Source of the DNA: Escherichia phage RCIP0319
Reading direction: 5' to 3' (one strand)
DNA: 64,000 bases
Sequence record: PV464738.1
Numbering within the stretch: position 1 is the stretch's first letter; each line of letters starts with the position of its first letter. The position numbers and the translations under genes were made by a program. The notes beneath the pieces are model-generated. The model ran no database searches. It was given only the letters and a program-made list of their open reading frames with translations, and had not been told where the DNA came from. Positions 55,135 through 56,435 of the stretch are shown in pieces.

Positions 55135-55611
55135 ATGCATAAAGTATTGATGACATCACTCTTAATATTAATGTATGCAGTCGCTAATCTAGCGGTCGTA
55201 ACGTTCGGCGTTTGGATCACCCCGTTAAACGCGCTTGTCATCATAGGCGCTGAGATAGTCATAAGGGACCGTATCCAATATAAATACGGCTTTGCGTATT
55301 CCATATTCAGTTGCTTGGCAGCAGGTGTTGTCACAGTGCTGATAACGCCATCCTCATTAAAGATTGCAATCGCCAGCGTAGCCTCAATCGTAATCGCAGG
55401 CATTGTGGCAGGAATAGCATTCAAATTAAGGGAAGGATCATTCTATAAAAAGTCTTTCTCAGCAAACATATTTGCTGCTGCAGCCGATTCACTAGTATTC
55501 CCTTTGGTCGCGTTCGGTGCATTCATGCCTTACGTTACAATGGCTCAATTTTGCGCAAAAACATTAGGTGCCAGCATCATTCTTTTGATTATGAGGAAGA
55601 TAATTAAATGA
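55135..55611 (+). CDS. yhhQ: YhhQ/VUT-family membrane transporter (putative queuosine-precursor transporter)
   Basis: About 158 aa polytopic membrane protein; SFSANIFAAAADSLVFPLVAFGAF parallels the conserved YhhQ segment as I recall it; shorter than bacterial YhhQ. Confidence 0.45.
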   Translation: MHKVLMTSLLILMYAVANLAVVTFGVWITPLNALVIIGAEIVIRDRIQYKYGFAYSIFSCLAAGVVTVLITPSSLKIAIASVASIVIAGIVAGIAFKLREGSFYKKSFSANIFAAAADSLVFPLVAFGAFMPYVTMAQFCAKTLGASIILLIMRKIIK

Positions 55612-56435
55612 CAATCCACTTTCATGGATCACCAATTACTGGCGGGAAAGGTCCGAAGGCTGCCATAGCATCATACCGTGACGGAGGCGCTTTTATATCA
55701 TTTGCCGCGGCACGCCAAATTGATTTGGCATTTGAATTCTCAAAGACGGTATGCATAGACAATGGCGCATTCAGCATGTTTAACTCTGGGAAGGTGCCTG
55801 ACTGGAATAAGTTCTATTTTGAATTCTTGCCTCGTTGGATAAGTAACGAAAAACTAAGGTTTTTCGTAATTCCTGATGACATAGAAGGCGGCGAAAAGGA
55901 GAATGACGCCCTTTTGGATTCAGTACCAAGTGATATGCAATCAAAGGGAGCTCCTGTTTGGCACATGCACGAGTCAATCGAAAGGCTTTTACGCCTTTGC
56001 CGTGACTATGAATACGTGTGCATAGGGTCATCAGGCGAGTATTATGCAATCCGTTCTCAAAAATGGAAGGAGCGGATGAAGGCCGCGTGTATGGCTATAA
56101 TCGAATCAGGGTCAAAGGCAAAGATACACGGATTAAGGATGCTTGATGGAAGGGTATTGGGCAATTACCCACTCGACCAAGCAGATTCAACGAATATTGC
56201 AATCAACGTTGGCAAGTACGATATGAAGATGCCAGAGGTAACGGTGGAGGCCTGTCGTGCACTAACGCACCCGACTAAATGGGTTGAGCCGCGCCACTCA
56301 TATGATGCGCTATCCAAGTTCATCGCCAATGGAGGTGACAAGGCAGACATCGCAGCGTACCGCGCGGCAGTATTAAGAGGAGCTATAGAGTCCGTCAAAC
56401 CGCCTGGAAGAGAAGAGTGGTATAAATCTCAATAA
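55608..56435 (+). CDS. dpdA: DpdA-like DNA-guanine transglycosylase (TGT superfamily), putative
   Basis: 275 aa; VCIDNGAFSMF resembles the TGT catalytic DSGGFQ motif; immediately downstream of the YhhQ-like gene with 4-bp overlap. Confidence 0.45.
   Translation: MTIHFHGSPITGGKGPKAAIASYRDGGAFISFAAARQIDLAFEFSKTVCIDNGAFSMFNSGKVPDWNKFYFEFLPRWISNEKLRFFVIPDDIEGGEKENDALLDSVPSDMQSKGAPVWHMHESIERLLRLCRDYEYVCIGSSGEYYAIRSQKWKERMKAACMAIIESGSKAKIHGLRMLDGRVLGNYPLDQADSTNIAINVGKYDMKMPEVTVEACRALTHPTKWVEPRHSYDALSKFIANGGDKADIAAYRAAVLRGAIESVKPPGREEWYKSQ

Follow-up and report, generated by a model that had tools for sequence, protein, structure and literature searches.

A DpdA and putative transporter cassette inserted in the genome of the Wifcevirus-type Escherichia phage RCIP0319

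Described 7-deazaguanine systems and the RCIP0319 locus

This work concerns the gene of a DpdA-family guanine transglycosylase and the gene of a short, transporter-like membrane protein overlapping it, both located in a 64,000-nucleotide (nt) stretch of the genome of Escherichia phage RCIP0319 (GenBank accession No. PV464738.1), the whole of which is hereafter called the window. Among the described systems, the Queuovirinae cluster (Escherichia phage CAjan, phage 9g) combines DpdA1 with FolE, QueD, QueE, QueC, and a 158-amino acid (aa) YhhQ-like protein. CAjan makes its own preQ0 (7-cyano-7-deazaguanine) and replaces about 25–32% of its guanines. The deletions of its folE and queC genes resulted in approximately 12-fold less dPreQ0 (the deoxynucleoside of preQ0), which was still incorporated from host preQ0 (PMC7544227).

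For the so-called "DpdA-only" phages, salvage (of host preQ0 or by uptake) has already been proposed; it was also found that some phages encode YhhQ homologues and that the singleton DpdAs of gammaproteobacterial phages form their own cluster (Hutinet et al. 2019, PMC6884629). The levels of modification reported for this group are 50 dADG (2'-deoxy-7-amido-7-deazaguanosine) per 10^6 nt, i.e., about 0.02% of guanines, in the DNA of Salmonella phage 7-11 (Hutinet et al. 2019, PMC6884629), and 354 dADG per 10^6 nt, i.e., about 0.13% of guanines, together with trace dPreQ0, in Pantoea phage MED16, the DpdA of which matched the tRNA-guanine transglycosylase (TGT) of T. maritima with an HHpred probability of 99.2% (PMC8306585).

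In the window, a 1,434-bp inserted block with the following features was distinguished:

55007..56440, + strand: inserted block (moron) relative to phage Bas98, with three co-oriented, overlapping genes (blastn against Bas98)
55007..55150, + strand: 47-aa open reading frame (ORF) co-travelling with the cassette (homolog in the same position in phage Opt-719)
55135..55611, + strand: 158-aa six-helix membrane protein, putative 7-deazaguanine-base importer (phrog_4899, profile homology, AlphaFold2 model)
55608..56435, + strand: 275-aa guanine transglycosylase of the DpdA family (TGT superfamily), from the "DpdA-only" clade of gammaproteobacterial phages

Each of the three ORFs is intact. The first-pass annotation, made from the letters of the sequence, had named the two larger genes, and both were confirmed, but it understated the extent of the cassette, since the 47-aa ORF lies in the same inserted block.

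The 275-aa protein resembles the DpdAs of the group 3 singletons of "DpdA-only" phages (Pantoea phage MED16, Salmonella phages SW9, SEN1, and 7-11, and Escherichia phage HK106) with 37–49% full-length identity, all of them being members of phrog_887, and the genomes of those phages are likewise devoid of preQ0-synthesis genes. The locus differs from them in that MED16, 7-11, SW9, and HK106 have no adjacent transporter gene of the VUT family, and in that the DpdA gene was recently inserted here into the genome of a virulent Wifcevirus-type myovirus. With CAjan, the RCIP0319 locus shares the PHROGs of both proteins and alignable catalytic motifs; the identity between the two DpdAs is, however, only 24%. 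Because the phage has no synthesis genes in the window, far lower modification than in CAjan would be expected.

We propose, with a probability of roughly 0.6, that the cassette is a translationally coupled transporter and DpdA which would give a low-level dADG and/or dPreQ0 mark in the phage DNA. By analogy with the relatives, DNA modification in this phage is likely and would probably be low-level. The first-pass annotation had read the locus as a probable 7-deazaguanine DNA modification through precursor salvage. This reading is in part supported. An anti-restriction role is unproven, and the data on the relatives give it no support.

The transglycosylase and the membrane protein

The 275-aa ORF (55608–56435) and its 4-bp overlap with the preceding gene were found as annotated, the ATG at 55608–55610 overlapping the TGA at 55609–55611 (ATGA), and a GAGGAAG site is located 9 nt upstream of the start. 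The protein has 2,698 database relatives (E-value ≤ 1e-3), including one copy with 99% identity, and no phage record contained a DpdA-like protein more than 80% identical to it. As the 158-aa protein has 339 relatives at the same threshold (mostly of 155–175 aa; exhaustive search), both ORFs are to be considered real genes and not chance ones.

The assignment of the 275-aa protein to the phage DpdA family is solid. The protein was placed in phrog_887 ("queuine tRNA-ribosyltransferase") with an E-value of 4e-71, and this PHROG also takes in the DpdAs of CAjan (7e-95), MED16, and 7-11, as well as the protein of the L060 locus described below. It is 48–49% identical to the DpdA of MED16 and 37% identical to that of phage 7-11. 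The BLASTP comparison with the CAjan DpdA gave an E-value of 4e-7 over 157 aa, with DNGAFS aligned to DSGAFS and ADSTN to CDSSS, and a profile of 36 family sequences matched the same protein with a probability of 94% (E-value 1e-7; hhalign). The comparisons with CAjan and MED16 indicate homology to experimentally validated DpdAs, and a TGT-type (beta/alpha)8 barrel fold for the product of 55608–56435, on which the first-pass annotation depended, was likewise borne out.

The segment VCIDNGAFSMF, which had been likened to the TGT catalytic motif, does fit it, as D51-N-G-A-F55 conforms to D[SN]G[GA]F, which reads DSGGF in E. coli Tgt (D89) and DSGAF in the CAjan DpdA (D63). In 74 distinct family sequences, including CAjan, residues D51, G53, A54, H119, G140, H174, D193, and S194 are invariant, and D90, placed just after strand 4, is kept in 73 of them; in the hidden Markov model alignment CAjan has a Ser there, which is probably a local alignment shift. 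The conserved residues are found at the C-terminal ends of successive barrel strands, and the catalytic Asp motifs are present, D51 and D193 aligning with D63 and D205 of CAjan (BLASTP). The order of the motifs also matches that in bacterial DpdA, i.e., D95 (acid/base), F99, D130 (base recognition, Watson–Crick edge), H181, G206-G207, and D256 (nucleophile). By this equivalence, which rests on motif and strand position and not on superposition, the predicted catalytic residues would be D51 as acid/base, D90 in base recognition, and D193 as nucleophile. No DpdB ATPase partner turned up nearby (no DpdB query was made), and the small ORFs next to the cassette gave no PHROG with an assigned function.

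The gene of the membrane protein begins with the ATG at 55135 and ends at 55611, as had been annotated. It is directly preceded by a ribosome-binding site (GAGGAGGA), and an alternative upstream TTG start at 55084 is possible. The protein belongs to phrog_4899 (2e-22), which is also the PHROG of the 158-aa "YhhQ" of CAjan (a putative preQ0 transporter) and of a membrane protein of phage mEp021. Pfam Vut_1 (PF02592) was matched by 36 of the 38 aligned homologues, some longer relatives scoring above the gathering cut-off. In hhalign comparisons, the family profile aligned with E. coli YhhQ, a queuosine-precursor transporter of COG1738, over 140 columns with a probability of 91.8% (E-value 7e-7), the SN..DS..FP..AF region included, and with the CAjan YhhQ with a probability of 97.5%. 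The AlphaFold2 model (mean predicted local distance difference test score, pLDDT, of 93.9) has six long helices, in agreement with the hydropathy scan. On account of the PHROG, the Pfam matches of the homologues, the profile alignments, and the six-helix model, the protein is judged to belong to the Vut_1/COG1738 (YhhQ) family, in which it is short and divergent, and its description as a small polytopic YhhQ-like protein thus stands; its function as a 7-deazaguanine-base importer is putative. It shares with E. coli YhhQ the six helices and the profile homology, and differs from it in length (158 versus 221 aa) and in falling, when taken alone, below the Pfam threshold. No solved structure of the YhhQ family was found in profile searches of Protein Data Bank (PDB) sequences, including those with E. 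coli YhhQ as the query. Among the relatives of the 158-aa protein (including P0187, P0196, and P0234), some of 330–350 aa have the short VUT domain fused to a C-terminal DUF5020, and in others of about 300 aa the C-terminal half has no assigned domain.

The third gene of the block, the 47-aa ORF (MKHIGWLVNGVFYRIEDEKRV...), overlaps the transporter start by 16 bp. It is 60% identical (E-value 5e-21) to a 47-aa ORF located upstream of the VUT gene in the Drexlerviridae phage Opt-719, and it is also present in three further loci (L010, L012, and L011), in the last of which it corresponds to the C-terminal portion of a longer, 117-aa ORF. It had no Pfam and no PHROG match.

Gene pairing across phages and the insertion site

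An adjacent, usually overlapping pair of VUT and DpdA genes is present in Drexlerviridae (Opt-719, Phleasolo, Sadiya, and Opt-79), LHE71, Lg3, Enterobacter phage Phc, Flyfo siphovirus Tbat1_6, Pectobacterium phage PEAT2, and Acinetobacter phage AB3P2. The Drexlerviridae pairs are the closest to that of RCIP0319 (61% identity for DpdA and 54% for VUT), with Opt-719 sharing the upstream 47-aa ORF as well; the pairs differ from it in residing on other phage backbones and, in AB3P2 and several IMG/VR loci, in the reversed gene order. No experimental study of these pairs was found in the searched literature.

For the linkage screen, 87 loci with a DpdA-like gene (80 from IMG/VR and seven others) were searched for a VUT gene within 6 kb. 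Such a gene was present in 13 loci, and in all 13 it was immediately adjacent to the DpdA gene and on the same strand, in either order. The maintenance of this adjacency across unrelated phage families argues for selection. It should be stressed that the pairing is optional, as most members of the clade are singletons, including those of 7-11, MED16, SW9, HK106, and Vibrio phage D105.

In one IMG/VR locus (L060; IMGVR_UViG_3300034374_006160, positions 1691–5305), the gene order is helicase, unassigned ORF, DpdA, QueC, QueE-like radical S-adenosylmethionine protein, and family-A DNA polymerase. The DpdA encoded there, a member of the same clade, is 43% identical over 200 aa, and its QueC neighbor matches PF06508 at 8e-50. 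The location of this gene directly upstream of those for QueC and the QueE-like protein ties the DpdA clade to 7-deazaguanine chemistry, and this otherwise "singleton" clade is thus sometimes linked to preQ0-synthesis genes.

Two further observations concern the compared loci. In Enterobacteria phage mEp021 (locus L004, 2991–5259), the phrog_4899 gene is located between a Dam-type methyltransferase gene and a DNA methyltransferase gene (phrog_757); the latter, downstream of VUT, was considered as a hidden DpdA, which its PHROG and a null hhalign result ruled out. In Opt-719 (locus L002), the DpdA-like gene spans 4001–4831, while the deposited entry, labelled "hypothetical protein", starts at 4088; the homology begins at 4001, abutting VUT, so the database start was probably called too late.

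The window shows about 90% DNA identity to Escherichia coli/Shigella myoviruses of the Wifcevirus group (e.g., Bas98, WFH, and WFC), the description of which in the BASEL paper makes no mention of deazaguanine or DpdA. In local blastn comparisons, 95% of the window aligned collinearly to the complete Bas98 genome, and the largest gap in this alignment was 55007–56440 (1,434 bp), with no Bas98 match between its flanks. Positions 54346–55006 of the window correspond to 54686–55349 of Bas98, and 56441–58076 to 55333–56968, so that the flanks, which are conserved Wifcevirus small ORFs, abut in Bas98 between the genes Bas98_0081 and Bas98_0082. The block was covered by none of the 28 related phage records. 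The cassette was found, at 99–100% protein identity, in two other public samples, i.e., in a 69,029-bp Logan contig and a 3,002-bp contig. We regard the block as a horizontally acquired three-gene moron, the insertion of which in this virulent Wifcevirus-type myovirus is recent.

When both junctions were aligned with the corresponding intact site of Bas98, an imperfect 12-nt direct repeat, GGTGAG[G/C]TA[A/T]AT, was seen to flank the insertion:

54995..55006, + strand: left repeat copy, GGTGAGGTAAAT, doubling as the ribosome-binding region of the 47-aa ORF (junction alignment with Bas98)
56446..56487, + strand: right repeat copy, GGTGAGCTATAT, within a resident repeated intergenic element (junction alignment with Bas98)

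The resident element consists of AAAAGGTGAGCT..GCTTGCCTTTT (a weak stem-loop), followed by a promoter-like TTGCCT-N16/17-TATACT, and is present in the window at 53742–53788 and 56441–56487 and in Bas98 at 55333–55416 and 53794–53853. The cassette was inserted exactly at the 5' edge of this element, the 56441–56487 copy of which is predicted to drive the downstream genes, and such repeated intergenic elements may be recombination hot spots for moron gain. The microhomology of the insertion site was also looked for in Opt-719, the closest donor-like phage, and it is absent there, the 47-aa ORF being coupled to a different upstream gene. Three more segments without a DNA match to Bas98 (58077–58378, 58720–59118, and 59779–60687) show that the cassette is followed by a variable region of accessory genes; their proteins are of 107 aa (no match), 134 aa (phrog_444), and 179 aa (phrog_2358), both PHROGs having no assigned function.

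Proposed function, competing explanations, and significance

The tblastn searches with FolE, QueD, QueE, and QueC of CAjan gave nothing better than an E-value of 0.13 in the window, while in a control the same queries detected QueC and QueE in the L060 locus at 5e-24 and 1e-19, respectively. Such synthesis genes are also absent from the annotation of Bas98, with which 95% of the window is collinear, and the other window-specific segments encode small proteins without assigned function; the absence of folE, queD, queE, and queC homologues from the window, noted in the first-pass annotation, is thus upheld. A self-sufficient cluster of the Queuovirinae type, with phage-encoded FolE, QueD, QueE, and QueC (or Gat-QueC), was therefore rejected for the window. 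Membership in the Cap10 group (the TGT-like protein of the type IV cyclic-oligonucleotide-based antiphage signaling system, CBASS), which shares an operon with a QueC-like Cap9 and a CD-NTase, was rejected as well, as the window contains nothing similar to QueC, the block holds only the 47-aa ORF, VUT, and DpdA, and the genes on both sides are conserved Wifcevirus small ORFs. E. coli has the full preQ0 pathway (FolE-QueD-QueE-QueC), and it also has its own tgt, queA, and yhhQ.

In the proposed mechanism, the cassette would be co-transcribed from upstream early/middle promoters as one message, and its reading frames overlap, those of VUT and DpdA by ATGA and those of the 47-aa ORF and VUT by 16 bp, in agreement with translational coupling. 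The inner-membrane transporter would supplement the host-made preQ0 by importing preQ0 or a closely related 7-deazaguanine as the free base. After replication, DpdA would flip out particular guanines in the phage DNA, D193 would form a covalent deoxyribosyl-enzyme intermediate with D51 acting as acid/base, and guanine would be swapped for the 7-deazaguanine. By analogy with the relatives, the product would probably be dADG, alone or together with dPreQ0, as a low-level mark at some tens of sites in each genome and not as a bulk substitution.

Several observations weigh against this proposal. In the tested relatives the modification is tiny, and the DNA of MED16 was not protected from the restriction enzymes tested (Simoliunas group 2021, PMC8306585). 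Deletion of the YhhQ-like gene of CAjan left the modification unchanged, in rich medium (PMC7544227). The 158-aa protein itself had no Pfam or NCBIfam match at E ≤ 1, and the mEp021-like lambdoid phages carry a short VUT gene with no adjacent DpdA (the rest of their genomes was not searched). A yhhQ gene is also present in E. coli itself, so that no need for a phage-borne one is evident. The search for synthesis genes covers the window, and about 5–6 kb of the phage genome lies outside it; the equivalent Bas98 region encodes a tail fibre and small ORFs, and, as the 69,029-bp sibling contig exceeds Bas98 by just 647 bp, little room would be left for a 2.5-kb synthesis operon. For the 275-aa protein, no Pfam match at E ≤ 1 (PF01702 included) and no NCBIfam match were obtained, a result without weight for DpdA membership, because the validated CAjan DpdA has no Pfam match either. 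The PDB searches gave only spurious matches with the single sequence and none with the family profile, and hhalign detected no similarity between the DpdA family profile and E. coli Tgt. Finally, the alignment of 36 sequences shows no cluster of conserved Cys residues, and the family is therefore without the Zn site (CxCxxC...H) of TGTs and bacterial DpdA (Salmonella Montevideo, PDB 7ui4), from which the phage protein also differs in having no large insertions.

The most probable of the competing explanations, although we find it rather unlikely, concerns the transporter alone: the membrane protein would not be a 7-deazaguanine importer but would have another substrate or be a membrane-active or superinfection-exclusion factor, with DpdA relying on host-made preQ0 only, which is compatible with the DpdA part of our proposal. 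The substrates of VUT-family proteins are not uniform, and the 158-aa protein misses the Vut_1 threshold and is 60 residues shorter than YhhQ. Moreover, its homolog was dispensable for modification in CAjan, and in mEp021-like phages it lies beside DNA methyltransferases without an adjacent DpdA. However, the invariable adjacency to DpdA in the 13 loci with VUT within 6 kb, irrespective of the order, the presence of the same PHROG inside the 7-deazaguanine clusters of CAjan and Queuovirinae, and the profile homology to the sole characterized preQ0/preQ1 transporter argue for the importer.

It is also unlikely that the cassette is a dispensable, effectively neutral passenger, intact but served by a host precursor too scarce for useful modification. 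The Wifcevirus life cycle can do without the cassette, since it is absent from all 28 related genomes, and both the 0.02–0.13% modification of the relatives, with no restriction protection, and the lack of a phenotype of the CAjan yhhQ deletion are in line with such a view. It is difficult to reconcile it, however, with three intact ORFs, the coupled VUT and DpdA frames, the invariant catalytic residues, the recurrence of the same cassette at 99–100% protein identity in two other independent sequencing samples, and the selection suggested by the adjacency of the pair across unrelated phage families. Least probable, in our opinion, is a non-DNA target of the transglycosylase, either host or phage tRNA (tuning translation) or a 7-deazaguanine attached to a protein, as with Cap10 of type IV CBASS (perhaps to interfere with that defence), the transporter supplying or removing the base.

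Returning to the low-level DNA mark, a more specific form of it can be envisaged, which we consider doubtful: a rare, motif-specific dADG-type mark at tens of sites per genome, the level of which would be set by scavenged bases, and not a bulk anti-restriction modification. If true, this would be a nutrient-dependent epigenetic mark on phage DNA with a purpose other than classical restriction evasion, for instance to elude one particular defence system or to control packaging or expression. In a variant of this reading, the base handled by the enzyme and the transporter would not be preQ0.

The literature already covers the gene families, the pairing of the two genes, and the hypothesis of salvage. 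What is new is the host backbone (0 of the 28 database relatives carry the cassette), the precise anatomy of the insertion, and the co-travelling 47-aa ORF; beyond these points, the cassette is what could be expected of a system already described. With it, the Wifcevirus group is added to the phages known to carry DpdA, and the DpdA and transporter pair behaves as a compact mobile unit moving between unrelated phage families. Restriction mapping and nanopore base-calling of the phage DNA may be slightly affected. It is also worth mentioning that near-isogenic relatives without the cassette exist (the BASEL Wifcevirus isolates), which makes a natural with/without test pair. Such a pair could address a question standing since 2019, i.e., what DpdA-only phages gain, and whether a phage YhhQ-like transporter raises modification by scavenging precursor.

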